Below are positions 251 through 62,455 of a stretch of 64,000 nucleotides of DNA, in pieces. The translations under genes were made by a program, and so were the position numbers. The stretch is from an uncultured Christensenella sp. (lineage in GTDB: Bacteria; Bacillota; Clostridia; Christensenellales; UBA1242). A model generated the notes under the pieces. That model was not told where the DNA came from. It saw only the letters and a program-made list of their open reading frames with translations, and ran no database searches. The stretch is from assembly GCA_949300385.1 (NCBI GenBank), contig CASGDZ010000001.1, forward strand, positions 80,276 to 144,275, in the 5' to 3' direction. How positions within the stretch are numbered: the first letter of the stretch is position 1; every line of letters begins with the position of its first letter.

Positions 251-571
251 ATGAATATAGAAGAAAGAGTTTATGTTGCTATTTTAATGAAATACTATGG
301 AAATTTACTTACCAATAAGCAAAAGGAAGTATTATCTATGTATGTAGATAACAATTTGTCTTTGCAAGAAGTTAGCGAAGAATTAGATATTTCGCGTCAG
401 GCAGTTAAAGATACATTAGATAAAGCAATTAATACGCTAAATAAAACAGAAGAAAGTTTAAAATTCATTTCTAGGGACAAAAAACTTATTAAATTTATTA
501 ACAGTAAAGCAAATAAAGAAATTGATGAAATAACAAAAAAAGAATTATTATCAATATTGGAGGACGAATAA
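251..571 (+). CDS. ylxM: YlxM/p13-like putative DNA-binding protein (UPF0122)
   Basis: Small HTH-like protein (LSLQEVSEELDISRQAVKDTL). Its stop overlaps the ffh ATG (TAATG). The ylxM-ffh pairing is conserved in Firmicutes. ATG 251 is preferred over the track start TTG 245. Confidence 0.8.
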   Translation: MNIEERVYVAILMKYYGNLLTNKQKEVLSMYVDNNLSLQEVSEELDISRQAVKDTLDKAINTLNKTEESLKFISRDKKLIKFINSKANKEIDEITKKELLSILEDE

Positions 572-1923
572 TGGCTCTATTTTCTAACCTTAGTGAGAGA
601 TTAAATCATATTTTTAGTAAAATGACTAAACGCGGGAAATTAACTGCATTAGAGATAAAAGAAGCAATGCGTGAAATTCGTGTAGCACTATTAGAAGCAG
701 ATGTCAACTTTTCTGTTGCAAAAGAATTCATAAATAAAGTTAGTGAGAAAGCAGTAGGTGAAGAAATTTTAAATAGTTTAACACCTACCCAACAAGTTAT
801 TAAAATCGTACGCGACGAATTAACCGCGCTTATGGGCGGAGAAAATCAAAAATTAAATGTTGCACCAAAACCACCTACAATAATTATGATGTGTGGTCTG
901 CAAGGTAGTGGTAAAACGACACTTTGCGGTAAACTCGCTTTAAAATTAAAAAAAGAAGGGAAGAAACCTCTGCTAGTAGCGTGCGATATTTATCGTCCAG
1001 CCGCAATCGACCAATTAAAAGTCTTAGGTAAATCAATACAAATTGATGTTTTTGAGCGTGGGACACAAGAACCAGTCAAAACTTGCAATGAAGCAATCAA
1101 GTATGCAGAAAAATTCGCACTCGACACTGTAATTATTGATACAGCAGGAAGATTGCAAATTGATGAAAAATTAATGGACGAGTTAAAACGAATAAAAAAA
1201 GAAATCGAGCCTACTGAAATTTTGCTTGTAATTGACTCAATGATAGGGCAAGAAGCAGTGGCGGTTTCTACTGCATTTAATGACGCGTTAGATGTAACAG
1301 GCGTTGTACTCACTAAGATTGACGGCGATACGCGTGGCGGTGCAGCATTATCAATTCGCTCAGTGATTGGTAAACCTATAAAATTTGTTGGTGTGGGCGA
1401 GAAATTAACAGACCTTGAACCATTTTATCCTGACCGAATGGCGTCAAGAATATTAGGTATGGGCGATGTTTTAACGCTTATTGATAAAGCACAACAAGCG
1501 GTAGATGAAAAAACTGCGCAAGAAATGGAACGAAAGTTTAGGGAAAATAGTTTTGACCTAAATGACTATATTGAGCAGGTTAATTCATTGAAAAAAATGG
1601 GAGGACTAAAATCTGTTCTCTCAATGATGCCGGGTATTAGCGGAAAAATGAAACAAATTGAAGATATGATTGACGAAAAGATGCTTGATAAAAATAAAGC
1701 GATTATTCAGTCAATGACACCAAAGGAGCGACAAGATCCAAGTATAATCAACGGCTCACGCAGACAAAGAATAGCGAAGGGCGCAGGGGTAGAAGTAAGC
1801 GACATTAATCAACTTATTAAACAATTTAATCAAAGTAAAGAAATGATGAAAATGATGAAAAACCCTAAGGCGTATGGTGGCAAATTAAAGATGATGAAGA
1901 ATCTAATGGGTGGAAACTTTTAA
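571..1923 (+). CDS. ffh: Signal recognition particle protein Ffh
   Basis: 450 aa. SRP54 N/G domains (GLQGSGKTT, DTAGR, TKIDGD) and a Met-rich M domain at the C-terminus. Confidence 0.97.
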   Translation: MALFSNLSERLNHIFSKMTKRGKLTALEIKEAMREIRVALLEADVNFSVAKEFINKVSEKAVGEEILNSLTPTQQVIKIVRDELTALMGGENQKLNVAPKPPTIIMMCGLQGSGKTTLCGKLALKLKKEGKKPLLVACDIYRPAAIDQLKVLGKSIQIDVFERGTQEPVKTCNEAIKYAEKFALDTVIIDTAGRLQIDEKLMDELKRIKKEIEPTEILLVIDSMIGQEAVAVSTAFNDALDVTGVVLTKIDGDTRGGAALSIRSVIGKPIKFVGVGEKLTDLEPFYPDRMASRILGMGDVLTLIDKAQQAVDEKTAQEMERKFRENSFDLNDYIEQVNSLKKMGGLKSVLSMMPGISGKMKQIEDMIDEKMLDKNKAIIQSMTPKERQDPSIINGSRRQRIAKGAGVEVSDINQLIKQFNQSKEMMKMMKNPKAYGGKLKMMKNLMGGNF

Positions 1924-1937
1924 CATTAATTTGACAA
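1858..1937 (+). repeat. Direct repeat copy 1 (last 21 codons + stop of ffh + 14 nt)
   Basis: 80 nt identical to 1996-2075, compared base by base at an offset of 138 nt. Confidence 0.95.
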
Positions 1938-1995
1938 CAATACGACATAGGGGAAAGCTGTCATCATTACATATAACCGCGTTATATGAAGGACA

Positions 1996-2075
1996 AAAAA
2001 CCCTAAGGCGTATGGTGGCAAATTAAAGATGATGAAGAATCTAATGGGTGGAAACTTTTAACATTAATTTGACAA
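1996..2075 (+). repeat. Direct repeat copy 2 (orphan copy of ffh 3' end)
   Basis: Exact 80-nt copy of 1858-1937. Weaker similarity continues for about 17 nt (1938-1954 vs 2076-2092). Confidence 0.95.
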
Positions 2076-2114
2076 TAAAACGGCATAGGGATAAAAAGAT
2101 AAACTCTTATTTAT

Positions 2115-2142
2115 TTGACAGATAATTTTAATGAATTATATT
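2115..2142 (+). promoter_or_regulatory. sigma-A-like promoter candidate
   Basis: TTGACA (2115-2120), 16 nt spacer, TATATT (2137-2142). Confidence 0.4.
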
Positions 2143-2208
2143 AAAAACTTAAAATTTATAAAAATACACAATATATAGTAGTTGTTTATTATTAATAACA
2201 CTGTAAAA

Positions 2209-2237
2209 TTGCTTAGGGGTCGATATTCTAGTATAAT
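2209..2237 (+). promoter_or_regulatory. sigma-A-like promoter candidate
   Basis: TTGCTT (2209-2214), 17 nt spacer, TATAAT (2232-2237). Confidence 0.45.
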
Positions 2238-2313
2238 GATATCACTAATTTTTGATTTGTCAATATGTGAAAAAAAATTTTATAATAATTATACAAAAAT
2301 TATAGAAAAACCC

Positions 2314-2342
2314 TTTACAAATTATGGAATATCTGATATAAT
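2314..2342 (+). promoter_or_regulatory. sigma-A-like promoter for rpsP operon
   Basis: TTTACA (2314-2319), 17 nt spacer, TATAAT (2337-2342). Lies 45 nt upstream of rpsP, which has an AAAGGAG RBS. Confidence 0.55.
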
Positions 2343-2386
2343 GTAAAGGTAAATTACTTTACAAGTGGTAAATAAAAGGAGAAATT

Positions 2387-2680
2387 ATGGCAGTAAAAAT
2401 TAGATTAACTCGTTTAGGAGATAAGAAATCACCTTTCTATCGTGTAGTTGTTGCTGATGCTAGAGTTGCTCGTGATGGTAAATACATTGAACAAATCGGT
2501 ACTTACAATCCGCTTAAAACTCCTGCTGAAATCAACATTAACGATGAACTTGCTACTAAATGGTTAAAGAATGGTGCTGTTCCTACTGAAACTGCTAAGA
2601 CTTTATTGCAAAAAGTTGGCGTTTTAGAAGTTAAAGGAAATAGTGCACCAAAAACTAACAATAAAAAGAAAAAAGCATAA
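2387..2680 (+). CDS. rpsP: 30S ribosomal protein S16
   Basis: [26 protein letters not shown] is the canonical S16 N-terminus. Strong RBS. Confidence 0.97.
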
Positions 2681-2690
2681 GGAGTAGGCT

Positions 2691-2921
2691 ATGCAAGAGA
2701 TGTTATCGTACATTGTAAAGAACTTAGTGTCTAACCCTGATGTTGTTGAAATTAGTACAGAAAATCAAGGCAAGACTAAGGTCTACAAAGTTAAAGTGGA
2801 CGAAAAAGATTTAGGAAGTGTCATTGGACGCGGTGGAGTAATTGCCAATGCTATACGCACAGTTGTTAAGTCCACAAATGACAAAAAAGAGCGAATTGTT
2901 ATAAAATTTGACTCTAAGTAA
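2691..2921 (+). CDS. ylqC: KH-domain RNA-binding protein (YlqC/KhpA-like)
   Basis: 76 aa with a GRGG KH motif (IGRGGVIANAIR). Sits in the conserved slot between rpsP and rimM. Confidence 0.85.
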   Translation: MQEMLSYIVKNLVSNPDVVEISTENQGKTKVYKVKVDEKDLGSVIGRGGVIANAIRTVVKSTNDKKERIVIKFDSK

Positions 2922-2946
2922 TAATTTAATTAGTTAAAAGGAAAAT

Positions 2947-3447
2947 ATGCAAAATTTACTAGAAATAGGGAAAATTGTGCGAACTCACGGCATTAAAGGT
3001 GCAGTTAAAGTAATTAGCTACCTAGATGGCGTGAATTTTTCTATATTTAAACATATTTATATAGGCCATGAAAAGTTGAGCGCAAACATTATTAAATCTC
3101 AACCTTTAAATAATGATGCTTTTTCAGTACAAATTGATATATTAAACAGCGTAGAAATTGCGGAGAAATATAAAAACAAATCCATATATATAGATAGAAA
3201 AGAATATCCAACATATAAAGATAAAATCTATTTGTCTGATTTAATAGGCGTACCAGTAATAAGTGAGAATGACAAAATCTTAGGCAATATGGTAGATTTT
3301 GAAGATTATGGTGCTAGCGTTATTTTGACGATAAAATGTGGCGCAGTCAGTTATTCAATACCATATGTCGATGAAATAATCAAATATGATAACATAAAGA
3401 ATGCATTTATAATTGATGAACAAAAATTTAAGGATTTGCGCGTATGA
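2947..3447 (+). CDS. rimM: 16S rRNA processing protein RimM
   Basis: IGKIVRTHGIKGAVKV N-terminal signature. Sits in the rpsP-rimM-trmD synteny. Confidence 0.9.
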   Translation: MQNLLEIGKIVRTHGIKGAVKVISYLDGVNFSIFKHIYIGHEKLSANIIKSQPLNNDAFSVQIDILNSVEIAEKYKNKSIYIDRKEYPTYKDKIYLSDLIGVPVISENDKILGNMVDFEDYGASVILTIKCGAVSYSIPYVDEIIKYDNIKNAFIIDEQKFKDLRV

Positions 3448-4112
3448 GAATTGATATTTTAACGCTTTTCCCTGATATGTTTGCGCCTTTAAAAGAGAGC
3501 ATAATAAAGCGCGCAGTAGATTCAAAATTAGTAGAAATAAATATTACAAATATTCGCGATTACGCTTCACCACCGCATTTCAAATGCGATGACGAACCTT
3601 TTGGCGGTGGGGCAGGAATGGTCATGATGTGTGACCCCATATTTAAAGCAATTGAGGCTATAAAACAAGACAATAGCAAAATATTTTATATGTCGCCAAG
3701 GGGAAAAGTATTTAATCAAAATATTGCGCGTGAAATGTTAAAATATAAACATATAATTTTTCTTTGCGGTCATTATGAAGGTGTCGACCAAAGAGTAATC
3801 GATTACTTTAATATTGAAGAATTGTCGATTGGCGATTATGTGCTAACTGGTGGAGAAATTCCCGCTATGGTTGTGGCAGATTGCATAACGAGGTTAGTTC
3901 CAAACGTAATCAAAAGTGAAAGTGTAGAAGACGAAAGTTTTTCGAAAAATTTACTTGAATACAATCAATATACACGCCCAGCAGTATATCGAGATATGGC
4001 GGTGCCTGAAGTTCTACTTAATGGCAATCACGCAAAAATTGCTGAGTTTAGGCAAAATCAATCGATCGAGATAACAAAGAAGAATAGACCTGATTTATTA
4101 AATAAAAAATAA
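3444..4112 (+). CDS. trmD: tRNA (guanine37-N1)-methyltransferase TrmD
   Basis: MRIDILTLFPDMF…GGGAGMVM…GHYEGVDQRV…LTGGE motifs. Overlaps the rimM stop. Confidence 0.95.
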   Translation: MRIDILTLFPDMFAPLKESIIKRAVDSKLVEINITNIRDYASPPHFKCDDEPFGGGAGMVMMCDPIFKAIEAIKQDNSKIFYMSPRGKVFNQNIAREMLKYKHIIFLCGHYEGVDQRVIDYFNIEELSIGDYVLTGGEIPAMVVADCITRLVPNVIKSESVEDESFSKNLLEYNQYTRPAVYRDMAVPEVLLNGNHAKIAEFRQNQSIEITKKNRPDLLNKK

Positions 4113-4284
4113 TATATGGCTTTGATTAGTCTATAAGATTATTGTCTATGTTTAAATAATTTAAATTTAACAAATGTTTAAAATGACATTATAAAAATAT
4201 AATATCATTTATGGTATACAAATTATTAAAAATAATTTGATATGTATAATATAAAAATAATTAAATGTTAAAAATCTGAAAAAG

Positions 4285-4317
4285 AACAAAATAAAATTGA
4301 AATTATTTTGTTTTTTT
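4285..4317 (+). terminator. A/U-rich hairpin + T-run (weak terminator candidate for trmD operon)
   Basis: 10-bp stem aacaaaataa/ttattttgtt (4285-4294/4303-4312) and T-run 4311-4317. Only one G-C pair. Overlaps the rbgA promoter. Confidence 0.35.
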
Positions 4318-4325
4318 GTTATAAT
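4297..4325 (+). promoter_or_regulatory. Promoter of rbgA with leaderless-type geometry
   Basis: TTGAAA (4297-4302), 17 nt spacer, TATAAT (4320-4325), 6 nt, ATG 4332. No SD in between. Confidence 0.5.
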
Positions 4326-4331
4326 ATACGC

Positions 4332-5165
4332 ATGATAAATTGGTTTCCTGGACATATGAATAAAACATTGAAACAAATGCAAACGGACGCTAAACTTTGC
4401 GATTGTTTTTTATATGTTGTTGACTCTCGTTGCCCAACAAGTTGTATTAATCCAGAATTTGTAAAAGTCGTGGGGAAGAAGCCTATTATTTTTATTCTAA
4501 ATAAAGCAGATTTAATAAATAAAACGGACATAGATAGATTTAAAAGATATTTTATTAATCAAGGGCAAAGATGTGTTAGTCTAAACGCTACTATGAGTGG
4601 TACAAGCAAAATAATAATCTCTGAAATGAAATCGATATTTAAAGATAGGTTAGAGATAAATAAAACTCGCGGTGTGAATTTTATTTTACGCGCTATGGTT
4701 ATAGGTGTACCTAATTCAGGAAAATCAACTATTGTAAACAATCTATGCAACAAAGGACGAGCAGTAACAGGAAATCGCGCGGGCGTCACTCGTTCAAAAC
4801 AATGGGTGAAAGTAGACGCTAATATAGAGATTATGGATACACCAGGAGTATTATTGCCAACTTTTGAAGATGAAAATACGGCTTATAATTTGGCATTTGT
4901 AGGCTCTGTAAAAGACGAGGTTTTAAATATAATTGATATTGCAACTAGGTTAATATCTAAATTAATAAAAATTGACGGCAACATTATTTCAACTAGATAC
5001 GGCGTAGATATCAATAATTATACACATGATATTGAGTTATTAGAACGAATTGGCAAAAAGCGTGGATGTATGATAAAAGGCGGAGAAATTGATTTGGAGC
5101 GGACGGCTAAAATAGTAATTAGTGATTTTAGATTGGGGAAATTAGGTAAAATTTGCTTAGAATAG
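4332..5165 (+). CDS. rbgA: Ribosome biogenesis GTPase A (YlqF/RbgA)
   Basis: MINWFPGHM N-terminus and circularly permuted GTPase motifs (NKADL … GVPNSGKST … DTPG). The track start TTG 4308 was rejected in favour of ATG 4332. Confidence 0.9.
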   Translation: MINWFPGHMNKTLKQMQTDAKLCDCFLYVVDSRCPTSCINPEFVKVVGKKPIIFILNKADLINKTDIDRFKRYFINQGQRCVSLNATMSGTSKIIISEMKSIFKDRLEINKTRGVNFILRAMVIGVPNSGKSTIVNNLCNKGRAVTGNRAGVTRSKQWVKVDANIEIMDTPGVLLPTFEDENTAYNLAFVGSVKDEVLNIIDIATRLISKLIKIDGNIISTRYGVDINNYTHDIELLERIGKKRGCMIKGGEIDLERTAKIVISDFRLGKLGKICLE

Positions 5166-5176
5166 AAGAGAAAAAT

Positions 5177-5827
5177 ATGATAGATACAAATGAAATATTT
5201 AATTATGATAAATCATTATTATCAGAAGACATAAAACTTATTGCTGGTATGGACGAAGTTGGCAGAGGACCACTTGCAGGTCCAGTTGTCACTGCTTGCG
5301 TTGCTATGCCTTATGATTTTATGATTGATGGAGTATTTGATAGTAAAAAGGTAACTAAAAAAAATCGCGAACGATTATATGATGAAATAATTTCGCATGC
5401 TCTTGATTATTCAATTAGTGTAATCGACCAAGATACGATTGATGAAATAAATATTTTAAATGCAACAAAAATGGCAATGACTAAAAGTTTTAATGATCTA
5501 AAAGTAAAACCTGATATTTTATTGATAGACGCTGTAAAATTAAATCTTTCAAACAATGAGCGCTCTATTATCAAAGGCGACGCAACAAGTTATGCGATAG
5601 CATGTGCTTCAATAATTGCTAAAGTATATCGTGATAGGATTATGGAAGAATATTCTAAAATCTACCCTCAATATGATTTTGATCACAATGTAGGATATGG
5701 AACTAAAAAACATATTGATGCTATTAAACAATTTGGAATAACGAAAATACATAGATTGAGTTTTTTAAAATCAATTATAGGTGAAGAAACATGCAAAAAG
5801 ATATATTTGGAAAGAAGGGCGAAATAA
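5177..5827 (+). CDS. rnhB: Ribonuclease HII
   Basis: AGMDEVGRGPLAGPVV catalytic motif. The start could instead be TTG 5153, which would overlap rbgA. Confidence 0.9.
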   Translation: MIDTNEIFNYDKSLLSEDIKLIAGMDEVGRGPLAGPVVTACVAMPYDFMIDGVFDSKKVTKKNRERLYDEIISHALDYSISVIDQDTIDEINILNATKMAMTKSFNDLKVKPDILLIDAVKLNLSNNERSIIKGDATSYAIACASIIAKVYRDRIMEEYSKIYPQYDFDHNVGYGTKKHIDAIKQFGITKIHRLSFLKSIIGEETCKKIYLERRAK

Positions 5828-6138
5828 TTGCTAGCCAGTACTTAAAAAATAAGGGGTATAAGATAATAAAAACTAACTATAAGAATCCTTTAGGTGAAAT
5901 TGATATTATTGCAAAGCAGGGTGATTATATAGTTTTTGTTGAGGTTAAGACTCGAACATCACGCGCATTTGGTGACCCATTAGAAGCGGTAAATGAAACT
6001 AAACAAATGAAAATTAGACAAGTCGCAACGCTATATTTAAAACAATTGAATAGACTTGATACTCCATGTCGATTTGATGTAATATCGGTATTAGGTCAAA
6101 CTGAAGAAGAGATTAGGCATATAATAAATGCGTTTTAA
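5791..6138 (+). CDS. yraN: YraN-family (UPF0102) endonuclease-like protein
   Basis: GE…GEIDIIA…VFVEVKTR motif pattern. Sits in the conserved slot after rnhB. Confidence 0.85.
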   Translation: MQKDIFGKKGEIIASQYLKNKGYKIIKTNYKNPLGEIDIIAKQGDYIVFVEVKTRTSRAFGDPLEAVNETKQMKIRQVATLYLKQLNRLDTPCRFDVISVLGQTEEEIRHIINAF

Positions 6139-7006: not shown

Positions 7007-8539
7007 ATGTTAGCAAAAATCTTATCATACGGATTAACAGGGATCAATGGGTATCCCGTAGAAATTGAATTGGATATAAATGCTGGTCTTCCAGGATACG
7101 ATGTAGTAGGTCTAGCAGATACTGCTATTAAGGAAAGCAAATCGCGTGTTAAAGCCGCAATTAAAAATAGTGCATATAATTATCCAATTAATAAAGTTAT
7201 AATAAATCTTGCACCTGCAGATACAAAGAAAGAAGGTAGCATGTATGATCTACCAATAGCACTAGGTATTTTAACAGCACAAGAAGATTTACCGGCAAAT
7301 GCTTTAAAAGATTATGTAGTATTGGGTGAATTAAGTTTAAATGGCGAAATTAGAAAAGTTAATGGAATTTTGCCAATGCTTATTAGTGCGAAACAGGCTA
7401 ATTATAATAAATTTATAATACCCAAAGAAAATGCTATGGAAGCATCATTTATTGATAAAATTGAAGTCTATCCAGTATCAACTCTGCGTGAAGTTGTACA
7501 ATTCTTAAAAGGCGAGATACAAATAGAAAAGAATAATTCTAAGACATTTGAATCCGCTTTGAAAGAACATGAATATAAGCATGATTTTGCATATGTACGC
7601 GGACAAGTTAGTGCTAAGCGGGCTATGGAGATAGCAGCGGCAGGCGGACATAATATTTTGTTAATTGGCCCACCGGGTGCAGGTAAGACTATGCTCGCAA
7701 AATGTTTCCCTTCAATATTGCCCGATTTGACATTTGAAGAGAGTTTGGAAGTAACAAAGATACATAGTGTGGCTGGCATTTTGGACCCTAAAAAAGGTAT
7801 AGTTATAGAGCGTCCATTTAGAAGTCCGCACCATACTGCGACATTAATTGCATTGACTGGAGGTGGGCAAAAAGCAAAACCGGGTGAAATTAGTCTAGCG
7901 CATAATGGTGTATTATTTTTAGATGAAATGCCTGAGTATGCGCGTAATACAATTGAAACACTTAGACAACCTATGGAAGATGGTTACATTACAGTTGCAA
8001 GAAACGCGCTAACTGTTCAATATCCTGCTAACTTTATTTTAGTAGCAAGTATGAACCCATGCCCATGCGGATACTATGGTAGCGCAACACATCCGTGCAA
8101 GTGTACACCTTCGGCGATACATAAATATTTATCAAAAATAAGCGGTCCGCTTATGGATAGAATAGATTTGCATATAGAAGTAGACGCAATCAATTATGAC
8201 GAATTGACAAAAAGCGATTTAGAAGAGCCAAGTAGTGAGATAAAGAAACGAGTAAACAAGGCGCGTGAAATTCAATTGACGCGATTTAAAAATAGTAAAA
8301 TATATGCTAATGCGAAAATGAATGAAAAGGAGTTTAAACAATATTGTAAACTTGATAGCGAATGTACGGAAATACTTGAACTTGCATTCAAAAAATTGAA
8401 TCTTTCAGCACGCGCATATAATAGAATCCTAAAAGTAGCACGCACAATCGCAGACCTTGATGGAAAAGAGAATATAGAAAAAGCACACATTATGGAAGCG
8501 ATACAATATCGCTCATTGGATAAAAAATATACGGTATAA
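7007..8539 (+). CDS. comM: Mg-chelatase-like AAA+ protein ComM/YifB
   Basis: Lon-protease-like N-terminal domain, AAA+ Walker A GPPGAGKT, Walker B LFLDE, and a Cys cluster NPCPCGYYG…CKC. ATG 7007 with an AAGAGG RBS is preferred over track start 6971. Confidence 0.9.
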   Translation: MLAKILSYGLTGINGYPVEIELDINAGLPGYDVVGLADTAIKESKSRVKAAIKNSAYNYPINKVIINLAPADTKKEGSMYDLPIALGILTAQEDLPANALKDYVVLGELSLNGEIRKVNGILPMLISAKQANYNKFIIPKENAMEASFIDKIEVYPVSTLREVVQFLKGEIQIEKNNSKTFESALKEHEYKHDFAYVRGQVSAKRAMEIAAAGGHNILLIGPPGAGKTMLAKCFPSILPDLTFEESLEVTKIHSVAGILDPKKGIVIERPFRSPHHTATLIALTGGGQKAKPGEISLAHNGVLFLDEMPEYARNTIETLRQPMEDGYITVARNALTVQYPANFILVASMNPCPCGYYGSATHPCKCTPSAIHKYLSKISGPLMDRIDLHIEVDAINYDELTKSDLEEPSSEIKKRVNKAREIQLTRFKNSKIYANAKMNEKEFKQYCKLDSECTEILELAFKKLNLSARAYNRILKVARTIADLDGKENIEKAHIMEAIQYRSLDKKYTV

Positions 8540-8540
8540 T

Positions 8541-9620
8541 ATGACAATTGATGATAAAAATATAATTTGGTTAGATTTATTCCCATTTATCACATATCAA
8601 AAGAAGGTTAAGATTCTTGAAATGTTTTCGCGAGGCGAAGATATCAAGCAGTCTTTTTCATCAAAACCTCAAATTCATGAAATGCTAACTGATATTGAAT
8701 ATAATAAGATGTTGTCAATGCGTGATGATATACGATTAAATCAGCGCATTGAAAAATATTTATCGGATGGAATAATACCTATTACAATTCACGATGACAG
8801 ATATCCTAGTATGTTGCGCGAGATTTCTTCGCCGCCATTGTGTTTGTATTGTAAAGGGAATTTGCAACTATTAAATAGTGAATGTATTGCAATAGTAGGT
8901 TCACGAAAATTGACTGATTACGGCGTTGTAACTACTAAGCAATATGCGTCTGCATTTAGTGAGTGCGATTTAACAATAGTTTCTGGATTAGCAGTAGGAG
9001 TGGATACAATTGCGCATAAAACTGCCATAGAACACAGCGGTAAAACTATTGCGGTATTAGCAGGCGGGCTATATAACATATATCCAGCAATCAATATCTC
9101 ACTAGCAAACAAATTATGTGAGAACAATCTAATAATTAGCGAAAATTGTCCTACAACTCCGCCACTAAGTTATCTTTTTCCTATACGAAATAGAATTATA
9201 GCAGGACTTTCGCGAGCAGTCGTCGTTACAGAAGCCGCAGAAAAGAGCGGATCTATTAAAACAGCGAGGTTTGCTTCTGAGTTTAATAGAGAAGTTTTTG
9301 CAATACCAGGTAAAATTAATTCGCCATTATCAAAGGGTACAAATTCACTAATTAAATCTTTAATTGCAAACATAACACTCTCACCAGATGATGTTTTAGA
9401 TAGTCTCAACATAAAAAAAGAAAATTCTGAAAATCCTACTCGTCAACTTGACATTAAAGAACAATTTGTATTAAATTATATTCGTACTGAGAAAAAGACT
9501 TTCCAAGAAATTGCAGATTATACTGAGATGTCAGCACGCGAATTGAACACTATTCTTATGGGTTTAGAAATGGTGGGTCTAGTAACAAAACTTGCCAATA
9601 ATAGTTATATAATGTCTTAA
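8541..9620 (+). CDS. dprA: DNA processing protein DprA (Smf)
   Basis: Rossmann-like DprA core (IAIVGSRK…SGLAVGVDTIAHK…FPIRNRIIAGLS) plus a C-terminal winged-helix tail. Confidence 0.9.
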   Translation: MTIDDKNIIWLDLFPFITYQKKVKILEMFSRGEDIKQSFSSKPQIHEMLTDIEYNKMLSMRDDIRLNQRIEKYLSDGIIPITIHDDRYPSMLREISSPPLCLYCKGNLQLLNSECIAIVGSRKLTDYGVVTTKQYASAFSECDLTIVSGLAVGVDTIAHKTAIEHSGKTIAVLAGGLYNIYPAINISLANKLCENNLIISENCPTTPPLSYLFPIRNRIIAGLSRAVVVTEAAEKSGSIKTARFASEFNREVFAIPGKINSPLSKGTNSLIKSLIANITLSPDDVLDSLNIKKENSENPTRQLDIKEQFVLNYIRTEKKTFQEIADYTEMSARELNTILMGLEMVGLVTKLANNSYIMS

Positions 9621-57630: not shown

Positions 57631-58862
57631 CTATTGATAACAAATTGTTAGATTTAATTAATGATTGTGAAAATCAATCAAAAAAACAATTTGACGATAT
57701 TGAAAGAATTGAATTTAAAAATCAATTAAAAGTTCTAAACGCTTTTAATGAAAATCATATTCAATCATATCATTTTATTGGTAGTACTGGATATGGTCAT
57801 AATGATATAGGTAAAGAAAAAATTTGCGATGTATTCGCTTCTATTTTTCACACAGAATCCGCCTTTGTGAGTCCTTTAATTAGTTGCGGTACGGAAGCTA
57901 TAAGTCAAACTCTATTAGGTATTTTGCGTCCAGGTGATAATATGTTGTGCATATCTGGAACACCATACGATACTTTAAAAAAGGTCATTTATGGGGTAGA
58001 AGGGAAGGACATAGGGTCTTTAAAAGATTATAATATAAGTTATAATGAAATTGACTTAATAGATAATGATTTTGATATACCTGCAATAATTAAATTTATC
58101 TCTTTGCACAGCCCAAAATTAATTTATATTCAACGCTCTCGTGGCTATTCTTTAAGAAACGCTATTACAATATCACAGATAGGCAATCTAATTAAATCAA
58201 TCCGACCTTATACAAATGCTTATATAGTAGTAGATAATTGCTATGGAGAATTTACTGAAGAATTAGAGCCAACCGATGTAGGTGCAGATTTGGTAGTGGG
58301 TTCATTATTGAAAAATATGGGAGGAGGGATAGCCCCAACTGGCGGATATATTGCAGGAAAGAGCGAACTAATTGAACTGATTTCATATAAGTTGACTAGT
58401 CCTGCATTAAGTACTGATACAGGTTCATATGAACCAGGTTATAAAGCGTTCTTTGAAGGTGTATTCCTTGCTCCTCATGTAGTAGCAGAGAGTAAAAAAC
58501 TCGTAGTCATTACTTCAATGTGCTTATCAAAATTAGGATATAAGACAATCCCAAATACAAATCAACCTATAAGCGATATTGTATGTACAATTGTATTCAA
58601 TGATAAAAATAAGTTAATTAATTTCTCAAAAGCCATTCAAGCATCTAGTGCAATCGATAGCGATTCTGTATTAGAGGCAGGAGAGATGGACGGATATGAC
58701 GACCTTATAATTATGGCAAGTGGAAGTTTTAATCAGGGTAGTAGTATTGAATTAAGTTGCGATGGACCTATGCGCGAGCCATATGCTGGTTATATTCAAG
58801 GTTGCCTAACATATCAACATGGCAAAATCGGATTAATGAACGCCCTTAGAACTTTACAATAA
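57624..58862 (+). CDS. YnbB-like Cys/Met-metabolism PLP enzyme ('aluminium resistance' family)
   Basis: 412 aa. The family was recognised by overall pattern (…GYGHNDIGKE…; SLLKNMGGGIAPTGGYIAG) and by its conserved location after the mutSL-miaA cluster. Confidence 0.75.
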   Translation: MLTIDNKLLDLINDCENQSKKQFDDIERIEFKNQLKVLNAFNENHIQSYHFIGSTGYGHNDIGKEKICDVFASIFHTESAFVSPLISCGTEAISQTLLGILRPGDNMLCISGTPYDTLKKVIYGVEGKDIGSLKDYNISYNEIDLIDNDFDIPAIIKFISLHSPKLIYIQRSRGYSLRNAITISQIGNLIKSIRPYTNAYIVVDNCYGEFTEELEPTDVGADLVVGSLLKNMGGGIAPTGGYIAGKSELIELISYKLTSPALSTDTGSYEPGYKAFFEGVFLAPHVVAESKKLVVITSMCLSKLGYKTIPNTNQPISDIVCTIVFNDKNKLINFSKAIQASSAIDSDSVLEAGEMDGYDDLIIMASGSFNQGSSIELSCDGPMREPYAGYIQGCLTYQHGKIGLMNALRTLQ

Positions 58863-59039
58863 TCTATTTATATTTTGCGACAATTTTGTTAATAAAAAAA
58901 GTTAGACATGTATTATTCTACATGCCCAATTTTTTATATAAGTAGGAGAAATACAAACGCTAAATAACTAAAATTAATAATGTTAAAATTATGCAATGCA
59001 TCACAAATGAATAAAAAATAATCAAGGAAGCATTTGTAA

Positions 59040-59054
59040 TTTTACGCAATGATA
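59040..59054 (+). repeat. Arm motif copy A (TTTTACGCAATGATA; 14/15 match)
   Basis: Matches TTTTRCGCAAAGATA with one mismatch. Its TTTACG doubles as the -35 of a promoter. Confidence 0.7.
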
Positions 59055-59068
59055 CATATTGATATAAT
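59041..59068 (+). promoter_or_regulatory. sigma-A-like promoter inside the non-coding island
   Basis: TTTACG (59041-59046), 16 nt spacer, TATAAT (59063-59068), with TG at 59060-59061. Confidence 0.45.
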
Positions 59069-59143
59069 GATATAAATCGATATATAATATAATTTCAATA
59101 AGATAAATTAAGCAAAAATTCTAAAAATTTGGAGAAATATATG

Positions 59144-59327
59144 TGTGGACAAAGTAGAGGAGGAAGAAAGATTTACATATATATCTTTGCGCAAAACACT
59201 TCTTTTGCGCAAAGATATTGCAATTTTGGGCTAAAAACCTGTGGAAATGCCATTTTTTATCCACACATTCTAACTTATTATAAATATTGTTACAATTTTC
59301 GACAAGATTGACTTTTAATAATCCACA
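59144..59327. promoter_or_regulatory. DnaA-box cluster (4 boxes in 184 bp)
   Basis: Against TTATCCACA, the four boxes are:
- 59144-59152: tgtggacaa, reverse orientation, 1 mismatch
- 59240-59248: tgtggaaat, reverse orientation, 2 mismatches
- 59257-59265: ttatccaca, perfect
- 59319-59327: taatccaca, 1 mismatch. Confidence 0.45.
59181..59218. repeat. Perfect 16-6-16 inverted repeat (arm motif copies B and C)
   Basis: The sequence reads ATATCTTTGCGCAAAA-CACTTC-TTTTGCGCAAAGATAT. The arms are exact reverse complements. Each arm also contains the 10-nt palindrome TTTGCGCAAA. Confidence 0.95.
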
Positions 59328-59690
59328 ATGCCATTTTGTGCATTTTAATTCATTTTATGTTAATAATTTTATGACCTAGTCTTTGACATTTTTTAATATT
59401 TGCAATATTTTAATAATCTTAAAACTTTGTCTTAAATCAACTGAAATTCAAATGACCAATTACTCATCTTTTTTTATTTGAATTCGTCTCAGCGCAGATC
59501 TGACGGGTATAAAATATTAGATAGCCATTAATTGACAAATTATATTATTTAACCAATATTTAAATCCAATGATTTTTCCTTTGCTTAAATTAGATTTATA
59601 GAAATTAAATATAATTTCTTTACAATAACATATTATGATTTGCCTTATCTATGACCTATTATACTGTCAAAGATTAGCAAAAATTAGATT

Positions 59691-59719
59691 ATATTATCAT
59701 ATTGTTATCTTTGCGTAAA
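59691..59719 (-). promoter_or_regulatory. Minus-strand sigma-A-like promoter overlapping arm copy D
   Basis: On the minus strand: TTTACG (59714-59719), 17 nt spacer, TAATAT (59691-59696) preceded by TG. It points into the non-coding island. Confidence 0.4.
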
Positions 59720-59722
59720 AAC
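59706..59722. repeat. 17-bp inverted repeat, left copy (arm motif copy D)
   Basis: TATCTTTGCGTAAAAAC is the exact reverse complement of 61376-61392. Confidence 0.95.
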
Positions 59723-59759
59723 CTTTAATTATAATTTTTATATCGATTTTAATTATTCT

Positions 59760-59791
59760 AAAAAACAAAAGACTAACATAATGCTAGTCTT
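59760..59791 (-). terminator. Rho-independent terminator for serS (+ small ORF)
   Basis: On the minus strand, aagactagc/gttagtctt stem (one G-U pair), loop attat, then TTTTGTTTTTT. Confidence 0.75.
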
Positions 59792-59795
59792 CATT

Positions 59796-59912
59796 TTACC
59801 ATTTCCATAATTTAGTTCTGATTTTTCTTTGTCTACCGCTTTTAGTACTCGGAATACCAGTTGTTTTTGATATTTTGGTTTTAACCTTTGTTATACCAAA
59901 ATTCTTTTCCAA
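59796..59912 (-). CDS. Candidate 38-aa highly basic small protein (TTG start; not in ORF track)
   Basis: GGAGG lies 6 nt upstream of the TTG, with an in-frame TAG immediately upstream. The product is MEKNFGITKVKTKISKTTGIPSTKSGRQRKIRTKLWKW. Its stop is 4 nt before the terminator, and there is no terminator between it and serS. Confidence 0.3.
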   Translation of the reverse strand: MEKNFGITKVKTKISKTTGIPSTKSGRQRKIRTKLWKW

Positions 59913-59980: not shown

Positions 59981-61267
59981 TTACTTTTTTACATTAATAA
60001 CTTTTGTTCCACCCATATAAGGCCACAAAACTTCTGGTATTGTCACACTACCATCTGCTTGTAAATGATTCTCTACGAAAGCGATTAACATTCTTGGTGG
60101 CGCAACGACTGTATTGTTTAATGTATGAGCAAACACATTCCCTTTATCTGATTTATATCTTATCCCTAAACGCCTAGCTTGAGCGTCTGTCAGATTACTA
60201 CATGAACCAACTTCAAAATATTTTTTTTGTCTAGGACTCCATGCTTCCACATCCAAACTACGATATTTTAAATCTGCCAAATCACCCGAACAACAGATTA
60301 ATGTTCTTACAGGAATTTTCATAGAAACAAATAACTCTACAGTGTAATTCCACATTTTTTCGTACCAACTTTCGCTGTCTTCAGGTTTGCATATAACAAT
60401 CATTTCTTGCTTTTCAAATTGGTGTATACGATAAATACCCCTTTCCTCTATGCCATGAGCGCCTTTCTCTTTTCTAAAACACGGACTATAAGATGTTAAA
60501 GTTATCGGCAACTTATCTTCTGGTATGATTGTGTCCATAAATCTACCTATCATACTATGTTCACTTGTACCAATAAGATATAAATCTTCTCCTTCAATCT
60601 TATACATCATATTGCCCATTTCTTCAAAACTCATAACGCCTTCAACCACACTGCTATGAATCATAAATGGCGGAATTACATAAGTAAATCCTTTATTGAT
60701 CATAAAGTCTCTGGCATATGCTAAAATAGCACTATGCAAACGCGCAATATCGCCTGTTAAATAATAGAATCCTTGCCCAGAAGTACGCCTAGCGCTATCA
60801 ATATCTATTCCGTCCAATTTCTCTAATATTTCAGTATGATATGGAACTTCAAAGTCCGGAACTTTAGGCTCTAAGAAAGTTTGCGCTTGGACATTAGATC
60901 TATCATCTTCGCCGATAGGGACATCATCTGCAATAATGTTAGGAATAGTCATCATAGCGCGCTTAATCTTTTCATCCAATTCACTGACTTCCTTCTCTAT
61001 AGAAGTTATCCTTTCGTTGTTAATAACGACTTCTGCTTTTACTTTATTAGCATCATCAATGCGCTTTTCTTTCATAAGCATGCCGATTTGACTGGACAAT
61101 GTGTTCCTTTTTGCTCTTAAATCATCGCCTTCTTTTTTTAAAGCACGGACCTTTTTATCCATATCAATAACTTCATCAACTAAATGTAGTTTATGATCTT
61201 GAAATTTCTTTTTAATGTTTTCTTTTACTTTATCAGGATTGTTTCTTAAAAAATTAATATCTATCAT
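59981..61267 (-). CDS. serS: Serine-tRNA ligase
   Basis: N-terminal coiled-coil arm plus a class II core (FRKEKGAHGIEERGIYRIHQFEKQE; GTSEHSM). AAGAGG RBS. Confidence 0.96.
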   Translation of the reverse strand: MIDINFLRNNPDKVKENIKKKFQDHKLHLVDEVIDMDKKVRALKKEGDDLRAKRNTLSSQIGMLMKEKRIDDANKVKAEVVINNERITSIEKEVSELDEKIKRAMMTIPNIIADDVPIGEDDRSNVQAQTFLEPKVPDFEVPYHTEILEKLDGIDIDSARRTSGQGFYYLTGDIARLHSAILAYARDFMINKGFTYVIPPFMIHSSVVEGVMSFEEMGNMMYKIEGEDLYLIGTSEHSMIGRFMDTIIPEDKLPITLTSYSPCFRKEKGAHGIEERGIYRIHQFEKQEMIVICKPEDSESWYEKMWNYTVELFVSMKIPVRTLICCSGDLADLKYRSLDVEAWSPRQKKYFEVGSCSNLTDAQARRLGIRYKSDKGNVFAHTLNNTVVAPPRMLIAFVENHLQADGSVTIPEVLWPYMGGTKVINVKK

Positions 61268-61313: not shown

Positions 61314-61375
61314 CAAATTAAAATTTTATAATAAAAATTTTACCAATTTTCAGAAAAATATATATAAAATAATTT

Positions 61376-61392
61376 GTTTTTACGCAAAGATA
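61376..61392. repeat. 17-bp inverted repeat, right copy (arm motif copy E)
   Basis: GTTTTTACGCAAAGATA is the exact reverse complement of 59706-59722. It lies immediately upstream of the recombinase -10. Confidence 0.95.
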
Positions 61393-61395
61393 TTG

Positions 61396-61401
61396 TATAA
61401 T
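61396..61401 (+). promoter_or_regulatory. -10 element of recombinase gene, leaderless-type geometry
   Basis: TATAAT, 7 nt, ATG 61409, with no SD. The -35 is poor (TTTGTT at 17 nt). Confidence 0.4.
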
Positions 61402-61408
61402 ATGATAT

Positions 61409-62455
61409 ATGTCATCAAATTATTATTTGGATAGAAATAGAAATAATATGCGAAAATTAAATGAAATGTTGACTGAATTGCCAGCATTCTGTTCTATATT
61501 TTTTATCGGTATTCAGGATACCACCACTCCACTCACAAGATTGAATTATGCTGTTGATTTAAAGACATTTTTTAATTATCTAACCACTTATGAAACAAAT
61601 TTTATGGGTCGTGATGTGCGAACTATTACATTAGCAGATATCGATAAAATTGATGCTCAGACGATTGAAAGATATATGGCATCATTATCTTATTATGATA
61701 AAGATAATGGCAAAATATATACTAATGGCGAGCGTGGTAAACTTAGAAAACTTTCTAGTCTGCGTGCATTTTTTAAATACTTTTTCAATAAAGATATGCT
61801 ACGCGCTAATGTTGCTAGTAAAGTTGCAAGTCCGAAACTGCATGAAAAACCTATCATTCGCCTAGAAAACCAAGAAACTGCTGAATTGATGTATTCATGT
61901 GAAACTCTATCTGGATTTAGTGATCACCAAAAGAAATACAATGAAAAATTTAAAGTTAGAGATAATGCCATTTTATCGCTTTTCTTAACGACAGGTATTC
62001 GTGTTAGTGAATGTGTTGGATTGAATGTTGACGACATAAATTTCAACCTAAATTCTTTTAGAGTTACTAGAAAAGGTGGAAATCAAGTTATACTCTATTT
62101 TGGAGAAGAAACAGCAGAAGCGTTGAATAAATACCTTGCTTTTAGAGACACATTAAATTTACCCAAAGAAGAACTAGCACTATTTATTTCAAGTCAAGGT
62201 AAACGAATGGTGGTTAGATCTATGGAATATTTAGTCAAAAAATATGCAAAAATCGCTACCCCATTAAAAAATATAACTCCTCATAAATTGCGATCTACAT
62301 ACGGAACAAATCTTTATAATGAGACTAAAGATATTTATATTGTCGCAGAAGTATTAGGTCATAAAGATGTCAATACTACAAAAAAACATTATGCCGCAAT
62401 AAGCGACGATGTTCGAAAATCTGTAGCTGGTAAAGTCAAACTCAACAATATGTAG
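61409..62455 (+). CDS. Tyrosine site-specific recombinase, XerS-like architecture
   Basis: 348 aa with the catalytic set R (TTGIRVSE), HxxR (TPHKLRST) and H…Y (LGHKDVNTTKKHY). The VTRKGG block and long N-terminal core-binding domain resemble single-recombinase XerS as I recall it. No alignment was run. Confidence 0.85.
   Translation: MSSNYYLDRNRNNMRKLNEMLTELPAFCSIFFIGIQDTTTPLTRLNYAVDLKTFFNYLTTYETNFMGRDVRTITLADIDKIDAQTIERYMASLSYYDKDNGKIYTNGERGKLRKLSSLRAFFKYFFNKDMLRANVASKVASPKLHEKPIIRLENQETAELMYSCETLSGFSDHQKKYNEKFKVRDNAILSLFLTTGIRVSECVGLNVDDINFNLNSFRVTRKGGNQVILYFGEETAEALNKYLAFRDTLNLPKEELALFISSQGKRMVVRSMEYLVKKYAKIATPLKNITPHKLRSTYGTNLYNETKDIYIVAEVLGHKDVNTTKKHYAAISDDVRKSVAGKVKLNNM

Follow-up and report, generated by a model that had tools for sequence, protein, structure and literature searches.

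What does a long, perfect inverted repeat do in the emptiest part of a chromosomal region, between two genes that are read towards each other? The question is raised by the window analyzed here, a continuous stretch of DNA of 64 kb, for which a preliminary description had reported a 16-6-16 palindrome within a gene-free stretch and had read it as a dif-like site served by the only recombinase gene in the window. Sequence and coordinates of the repeat proved exact (arms 100% complementary), and the gene-free stretch is real, being by far the largest gap in the window and also the most AT-rich one, with a GC content of 23.2% versus 31.0% overall. The features of this region are as follows:

59181 to 59218, no strand assigned: candidate core recombination site, a perfect 16-6-16 inverted repeat
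59181 to 59196: left arm of the core, ATATCTTTGCGCAAAA
59197 to 59202: spacer of the core, CACTTC
59203 to 59218: right arm of the core, TTTTGCGCAAAGATAT
58863 to 59795, no strand assigned: AT-rich gene-free island between convergent genes
58902 to 58929: terminator-like hairpin after the PF06838-family gene (terminator scan)
59768 to 59792, minus strand: serS-side terminator (terminator scan)
59129 to 59311, plus strand: short ORF overlapping the palindrome, rejected as coding
59121 to 59264, minus strand: short ORF overlapping the palindrome, rejected as coding

Among inverted repeats in the window whose arms are ≥12 nt long and whose spacer does not exceed 12 nt, the palindrome is the sole perfect one, and it occurs there as a single full copy. 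None of 60 windows simulated under a first-order Markov model reached a perfect arm of 16 nt (longest, 15 nt). Its layout is the generic one of dif sites, two inverted arms around a centre of 6 to 8 bp. The PF06838-family gene to the left of the island (plus strand) ends at 58862 and serS to its right (minus strand) ends at 59981; with terminator hairpins on both sides, the palindrome sits between two convergent transcription ends. A coding role for the palindrome was rejected, since the short ORFs that overlap it are without Pfam match and the alignment has indels between the conserved motifs.

Two further elements were observed in and beside the island. Between the serS stop and the serS terminator lies a strongly basic ORF of 38 aa (MEKNFGITKVKTKISKTTGIPSTKSGRQRKIRTKLWKW; 59796 to 59912, minus strand), which has a GGAGG ribosome-binding site and no Pfam match, and is missing at that place in most relatives. 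To the right of the palindrome, a conserved block at about 59455 to 59515 (columns ∼560 to 640 of alignment A2) comprises the hairpin AGATGA-N8-TCATCT, its T-run and, beyond these, AATTCGTCTSAGMGCA; the block may mark where a small transcript ends or may bind a protein. Rfam gave zero matches in the island, this block included, at gathering and permissive thresholds alike.

We consider it likely that Candidatus Onthoplasma has a chromosomal Xer-type system with a single recombinase, whose core site, analogous to dif, is this palindrome at the replication terminus. According to this model, one monomer of a 348-aa tyrosine recombinase would occupy each ∼14-bp arm, the two sites of a chromosome dimer would synapse, and strand exchange across the 6-bp spacer would turn the dimer into monomers. 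The dif-like interpretation draws support from the conservation of the site, its linkage to the recombinase, its terminus-type position and the viral use of its spacer. We infer that the linked recombinase is the enzyme acting at the palindrome and that dimer resolution is its physiological role; the recombinase would be the only Xer of the cell, acting alone, and a septal translocase would control recombination at the palindrome.

Conservation was assessed on a comparative set of 54 loci (L001 to L054) from a scan of species-representative genomes. The palindrome was present at nearly all loci with sufficient upstream DNA, as one full copy per 21-kb locus with the exception of L051, and each of the 37 sites, taken from 36 loci of Candidatus Onthoplasma and its relatives, had a spacer of 6 nt. 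Across these 37 aligned sites, arm positions 3 to 16 remain complementary; this is the conserved symmetric part, and the functional geometry is thus ∼14-6-14. A comparison with relatives that had been proposed earlier as a check found the palindrome conserved beside orthologous recombinases, with compensatory changes in the arms: both sides had changed in 7 of the 16 arm pairs, giving for example TTTGCGC/GCGCAAA, TTTTCGC/GCGAAAA, CATTGCGC/GCGCAATG and TATTCGC/GCGAATA. Paired cells made up 90.7% of the alignment versus 83.7% in shuffles (observed value reached in 0 of 500), and pairing dropped to 31 to 57% when the partner column was slid. Such mismatches as occur in the arms are C-A, and G-U intermediates are almost absent. 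The arm alignments show, at the level of sequence, that the symmetry of the arms is kept under selection and that their geometry is conserved. The spacer sequence is variable, with an orientation relative to the recombinase that is constant within the genus (NNCTTC or CAAYAC). The exceptional locus, L051, from an Oscillospiraceae relative, has two differing full sites 1 kb apart upstream of the recombinase (7667 to 7700 and 8737 to 8770), which may be the remnant of an integrated element.

In two species the site has been used by microvirus prophages, which are joined to the chromosome at the spacer. Locus L010 carries a 5.3-kb Microviridae prophage (541 to 5880) directly left of the full site, encoding a major capsid protein (phrog_514; 1e-220), Rep (phrog_942; 1e-105), a pilot protein, a DNA-binding protein and a repressor. 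The 5.8-kb Microviridae prophage of locus L039 (1653 to 7483; major capsid, 3e-217; Rep, 2.5e-112) has the same arrangement, and its Rep is 79% identical to that of L010. No integrase was found in either prophage. Both are bounded on the left by a left arm, the spacer and unrelated sequence, and on the right by a complete site. At the left junction of L010, host flank is followed by the left arm TATCTTTTCGCAAAA, the spacer CACTTC and then unrelated ACATTCGAAATACGTG; at the right junction, ∼45 nt of flank together with arm and spacer are repeated, and a proper right arm follows. In L039 the two junctions are identical only over arm and spacer, the flanks having diverged. The phage side comprises a copy of the host left flank (∼45 to 60 bp, including a DnaA-box-like motif at −37), an arm, the spacer and a degenerate right arm. 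Junctions at the spacer show that DNA was broken and rejoined there by host machinery, and use by integrase-less integrative elements (IMEX), a generic property of dif sites, is thereby seen in L010 and L039. Gokushovirus prophages at the dif site of Escherichia coli, integrated via XerC/XerD, have the same architecture, and in 2020 such prophages were reported only from enterobacteria (PMC7062461). A search for free microvirus genomes with an attP copy returned the prophage-bearing contig alone, and 79 more distant microviruses contained zero convincing arms. An IMG/VR contig (L068/L084/L085) is also listed with an integrase-less Microviridae prophage at the site.

The position of the palindrome is that expected of a terminus. 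In the window, GC skew is positive along 58 kb of plus-strand genes and negative past the site, and cumulative skew peaks at 59170. Of 32 loci, 31 had positive skew on the left of the site and negative skew on its right, with genes converging on it, and at 14 of 26 loci no more than 62 bp separated the cumulative maximum from the palindrome (median offset, −13 bp); in two loci the maximum lay 7 to 8 kb to the right. In a metagenomic set, the expected skew signs were found in 19 of 28 loci. On the local scale, then, the skew analysis that had been proposed as a check places the palindrome at a switch of GC skew and gene orientation where replichores converge, as at other dif sites, an assignment drawn from stretches of 20 to 64 kb and not from the whole replicon. 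The gene order in L046 and L047 is plus-strand genes, site, recombinase, rnhA and a minus-strand run. In Onthoplasma the site is followed by serS, a plus-strand island (recombinase, lexA, PadR and an ABC transporter) and then minus-strand rnhA, rny and thiI; this 6-kb plus-strand island after serS means that the strand switch is not clean in the genus. A replication origin was rejected as an explanation of the DnaA-box-like motifs in the gene-free island, because genes and skew would diverge from an origin but converge on the island.

The proposed enzyme is encoded to the right of serS:

61409 to 62455, plus strand: tyrosine recombinase of 348 aa, proposed cognate enzyme, with R, K, H-x-x-R, H and Y kept

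As had been claimed, this is the only recombinase found in the window, and the xerC/codV slot of the Bacillus subtilis-type arrangement is empty, with zero genes between the trmFO stop (13014) and the hslV start (13017). Seven diverse members all retain the catalytic residues R, K, H-x-x-R, H and Y unchanged, so that an Xer-type recombinase with an intact catalytic set accompanies the site. Its earlier characterization as XerS-like holds for length and layout but not for family membership: XerS (NF003462) is the best NCBIfam profile and matches over the full length, with 176 bits against an equivalog cutoff of 267. Scores against the XerC profile (164 bits; cutoff, 335) and the XerD profile (155 bits; cutoff, 330) were also below threshold, as was that against XerA, which makes the protein a new variant outside those families. 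Among solved structures, XerD is nearest in sequence (3e-21), and the match to the XerH structure (PDB 5JJV) is weak (E = 1.7e-7) and poorer than that to XerD. Thousands of close relatives occur among gut metagenome-assembled genomes (MAGs) named Candidatus Onthoplasma (Christensenellales, Clostridia), and identity between species is 82 to 91%. An exact-sequence look-up of the recombinase returned zero records, and a protein-database profile search for taxonomic breadth again returned only Onthoplasma-type proteins.

Site and recombinase gene are 2.2 kb apart in the window with serS between them, unlike in the XerS and XerH systems. Where the recombinases are 50 to 55% identical (L043, L045 to L047 and L050), the site lies 150 to 300 bp upstream of the gene and adjoins a TTGACA −35 element. 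A metagenome scan for other lineages yielded 80 loci, in which sites were scored with a position weight matrix. A 14-6-14 site scoring >20 lay upstream of the gene in 50 of them (shuffles, ≤9.3), always upstream and at distances of 52 to 3,359 bp, with arm families specific to the lineage (AACTATTCGYRAAA, AACATTGCGCAAAA, ATTTATTCGYAAAA, ATCTATACGACAAA). The other 30 loci had no detectable site; some of these had short upstream sequence. Small viral contigs with their own recombinase were also observed (L055, L056, L057, L061, L067, L071 and L081; IMG/VR, 4.4 to 9 kb). The recombinases of these seven contigs (353 to 357 aa, 26 to 32% identity) start within ∼30 bp of a related palindrome, for example AATTTCGTAAAA-N6-TTTTACGAAATT or AATTGCGTAAAA-N6-TTTTACGCAAT. 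Two of the seven were scanned for phage genes: L061 has a rolling-circle Rep, and L057 has Zot-, G2P- and RstB-like genes that give it the look of an inovirus. The closeness of gene and site in distant relatives, metagenomic loci and viral contigs places adjacency in the wider family; difSL and difH are both close to their own recombinase genes (PMC5357621).

The same viral contigs carry the strongest rival to the dif-like reading, namely that recombinase and palindrome form an integrase/att module of mobile-element origin that serves integration, excision or element maintenance and not dimer resolution. Besides the related palindromes that adjoin recombinases on these contigs (the inovirus-type L057 among them), it can appeal to XerS itself, whose acquisition as a module has been suggested (PMC1914069). 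We regard this explanation as improbable. The module in the window is without flanking mobile-element genes, it holds the same chromosomal position, with mutL-miaA upstream and rnhA downstream as its neighbours, throughout the genus and beyond, and its recombinase is highly similar between species; moreover, the palindrome lies at the skew switch and is used by other, integrase-less elements.

Single arms of the palindrome recur around the core:

61377 to 61392, plus strand: lone right-type arm TTTTACGCAAAGATAT, inside the recombinase promoter; proposed autorepression operator
59706 to 59720, plus strand: lone left-type arm TATCTTTGCGTAAAA, partnerless; genus-wide, 350 to 1,000 bp to the right of the core
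59040 to 59054, plus strand: lone right-type arm TTTTACGCAATGATA, one mismatch; in some species only
7780 to 8536 of L018: locus with lone arms
7208 to 7898 of L040: locus with lone arms
253 to 1122 of L026: locus with lone arms

Lacking a second arm, the lone arms fall short of a complete core site. Around the core of three rabbit-gut (Lapin) MAGs they are doubled (R R core L L), roughly symmetric and facing outward. The gene content between the lone left-type and right-type arms varies by species in the genomes looked at, and some species have extra minus-strand genes without Pfam match inserted around serS (L010, 6956 to 8035; L017, 6329 to 7150 and 8472 to 9854), which lie in the interval that separates serS from the lone left-type arm or in the one that separates it from the lone right-type arm. 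That the left-type arm is a leftover att junction was rejected, as it lies to the right of the core and so on the wrong side; the right-type promoter arm is on the compatible side, and the same origin is speculative for it.

The promoter arm at 61377 to 61392 lies between a −35-like TTGTTT (61374 to 61379) and a TG-n-TATAAT (61394 to 61401), and the equivalent arm occupies the interval between −35 and −10 of the recombinase promoter at most Onthoplasma loci. Judged by this placement, the lone arm probably lets the recombinase repress its own gene, in keeping with the autoregulatory promoter overlap proposed speculatively for difSL (PMC1914069). In the window, the recombinase ATG is located 7 nt past TATAAT and has no Shine-Dalgarno sequence (61396 to 61411), which suggests a leaderless mRNA; the gene has a longer leader with GGAGG in most relatives.

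An explanation by regulation alone would have a dimeric regulator, or the recombinase as repressor, bind the palindrome and the lone arms as transcriptional operators. The exact fit of the lone arm between −35 and −10 in most species favours it, and so does the clustering of five arms within 2.4 kb with none elsewhere in the 64 kb. The full site, however, is located between two convergent terminators with zero genes to regulate, and the prophage junctions show breakage and joining at the spacer. The double operator suggested in the preliminary description, built on the 10-nt mini-palindrome TTTGCGCAAA, is disfavoured because in three loci (L010, L011 and L014) TTTTCGCAAA is paired with TTTGCGAAAA, so that the 10-nt sub-palindrome is lost while the large dyad stays. 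An operator function without recombination thus appears very unlikely.

Still less credible is an RNA hairpin, acting as terminator or structured RNA element, which had been raised as a second competing reading. As RNA the palindrome folds at −20.7 kcal/mol (z-score, −7.4), and formally the covariation of the arms would also suit a stem. However, the stem is followed by no U-tract or T-run, as an intrinsic terminator would require, and the terminator scan of the window made no call there; the palindrome lies beyond both flanking terminators, has no Rfam match, and shows C-A mismatches with nearly no G-U intermediates. Conservation of the lone arms outside any hairpin and the structure of the prophage junctions argue against RNA as well.

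The dif-like core is accompanied on both sides by motifs resembling DnaA boxes, with offsets counted relative to the palindrome:

59144 to 59152, minus strand: DnaA-box-like TTGTCCACA, offset −37; also in prophage-borne copies of the left flank
59240 to 59265, no strand assigned: inverted pair of DnaA-box-like motifs, offsets +59 and +79
59240 to 59248, minus strand: DnaA-box-like ATTTCCACA, offset +59
59257 to 59265, plus strand: DnaA-box-like TTATCCACA, offset +79; the only perfect copy in the window
59296 to 59304, plus strand: TTTTCGACA, conserved; its minus strand reads TGTCGAA (Spo0A-type)
59319 to 59327, plus strand: TAATCCACA, offset +141; conserved

The offsets −37, +59, +79 and +141 are fixed across the genus despite variable sequence between the motifs. 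TCCACA occurs four times in 184 bp versus 18 times in 64 kb, and the density of DnaA-box-like motifs is 7.9 per kb near the site versus 0.63 per kb elsewhere; in sequence terms, the flanks therefore hold a cluster of conserved matches to TTATCCACA. All Onthoplasma loci agree in how flank motifs and spacer are ordered and oriented relative to the recombinase, with no inverted variant among them, and an invertible DNA switch that has the lone arms at 59040 and 59706 as its inverted boundaries is next to negligible as an explanation, for all that these arms enclose a 0.65-kb segment with a tyrosine recombinase gene nearby. Each of the four rivals (att module, operator, RNA hairpin and invertible switch) accounts for fewer observations than the dif-like reading.

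Returning to the dif analogue, an accessory nucleoprotein structure is probably assembled on the other lone arms and the phased DnaA-box-like flanks. It could lend the symmetric core an asymmetry and a control that the core itself is unable to provide. A bolder version, which we put forward tentatively and hold to be doubtful, is that core, phased flanks and lone arms make up a single terminus nucleoprotein machine of ∼200 bp, in which DnaA or another box-binding factor together with extra recombinase monomers would give directionality and cell-cycle timing. If so, FtsK control would be supplemented or supplanted by the machine, which might in addition flag the terminus as a place of SMC unloading, and the microviruses would copy the left flank and its box as a requirement of the first strand exchange.

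To our knowledge, single-recombinase Xer systems are few (XerS, XerH, XerA and XerL). Each has been instructive on the way in which order and direction arise in a reaction run by a symmetric enzyme. As the core here is fully palindromic, only the spacer or the conserved flanks can be the source of any asymmetry. If the reading is correct, the Clostridia gain a single-recombinase Xer system in the Christensenellales, common gut bacteria known mostly from metagenomes, with related sites widespread in gut metagenomes; a literature search found no description of such a system in this order. The palindrome would allow the terminus of these genomes to be located by sequence, and the site would explain the lysogeny of integrase-less microviruses in a Gram-positive gut lineage. 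DnaA-box-like motifs at a terminus are an association for which our literature search found no report, queries pairing DnaA boxes with dif sites having returned nothing relevant.

Among known systems, XerS/difSL of streptococci and lactococci resembles the present one in its single recombinase of ∼350 aa, with XerS the best-matching profile, and in the A-run/T-run at the inner arm ends (TTTGCGCAAAA here versus TTTCCGAAAA in the left arm of difSL; PMC5357621). In distant relatives the site is also directly upstream of the gene, beside the promoter. The differences are that the protein, at 176 versus 267 bits, is no XerS equivalog, that the palindrome here is perfect and longer (arms of 14 to 16 nt) whereas the arms of difSL are unequal and imperfect, that serS and 2.2 kb separate site and gene in Onthoplasma, and that lone arms and DnaA-box-like flanks are present. 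The 31-bp difSL arrangement (TTTCCGAAAA and TTTTCTTGAAA directly upstream of the gene) was not found, adjacency being confined to the distant relatives. XerH/difH of Helicobacter and Campylobacter shares the single recombinase, a site near the gene, a centre of the 6-bp class and GAAAA-type inner arms, but protein similarity is weak (E = 1.7e-7), the arm sequence is another, and difH is asymmetric, so that the locus does not fall under XerH/difH either.

The XerL/dif system of Legionellales has long uninterrupted inverted-repeat arms at the terminus, and its dif site was discovered via the integrating mobile element LME-1 (PMC9765430). Compared by description only, it is like the present system in having one recombinase, such arms, a terminus position and a mobile element that integrates there; it differs in phylum, in the distance of xerL from dif (>400 kb), and in that the element is LME-1 and not a microvirus. 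XerCD/dif as used by gokushoviruses and other IMEX offers the parallel of integrase-less Microviridae, one canonical and one variable or hybrid site, a 6-bp spacer and the terminus (PMC7062461). In contrast to its two recombinases and asymmetric 11-6-11 site, there is seemingly one recombinase and a symmetric site here, and the prophage, unlike gokushoviruses at dif, carries a copy of ∼45 to 60 bp of the host left flank including the −37 box. A XerC/XerD pair with a 28-bp dif was not found within the window, which has one recombinase and an empty codV slot.

The lone arms and DnaA-box-like flanks are extras that would not be expected from any known system. For the lone arms, the nearest precedent is the XDS of B. 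subtilis, dif-like sites of the terminus region that bind XerD without recombination and act on SMC (PMC11840125; PMC11894783). Thermococcus has its dif site, an SMC boundary, within a large intergenic region on which genes converge (PMC11840125; PMC11894783), and the lone arms and 0.93-kb island described here resemble both. The likeness is one of DNA layout alone, and the lone arms differ in being single perfect arms within 2.4 kb.

At the plasmid Xer sites cer and psi, binding sites for ArgR/PepA or ArcA at a fixed distance, on one side only, control the reaction. The present locus likewise has motifs of a protein-binding type at fixed distances beside an Xer core, but it is chromosomal, and its motifs are DnaA-box-like and stand on both sides. 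On these comparisons, palindrome and recombinase are best classed together as a new variant of single-recombinase Xer/dif and not as a member of XerS, XerH or XerCD.
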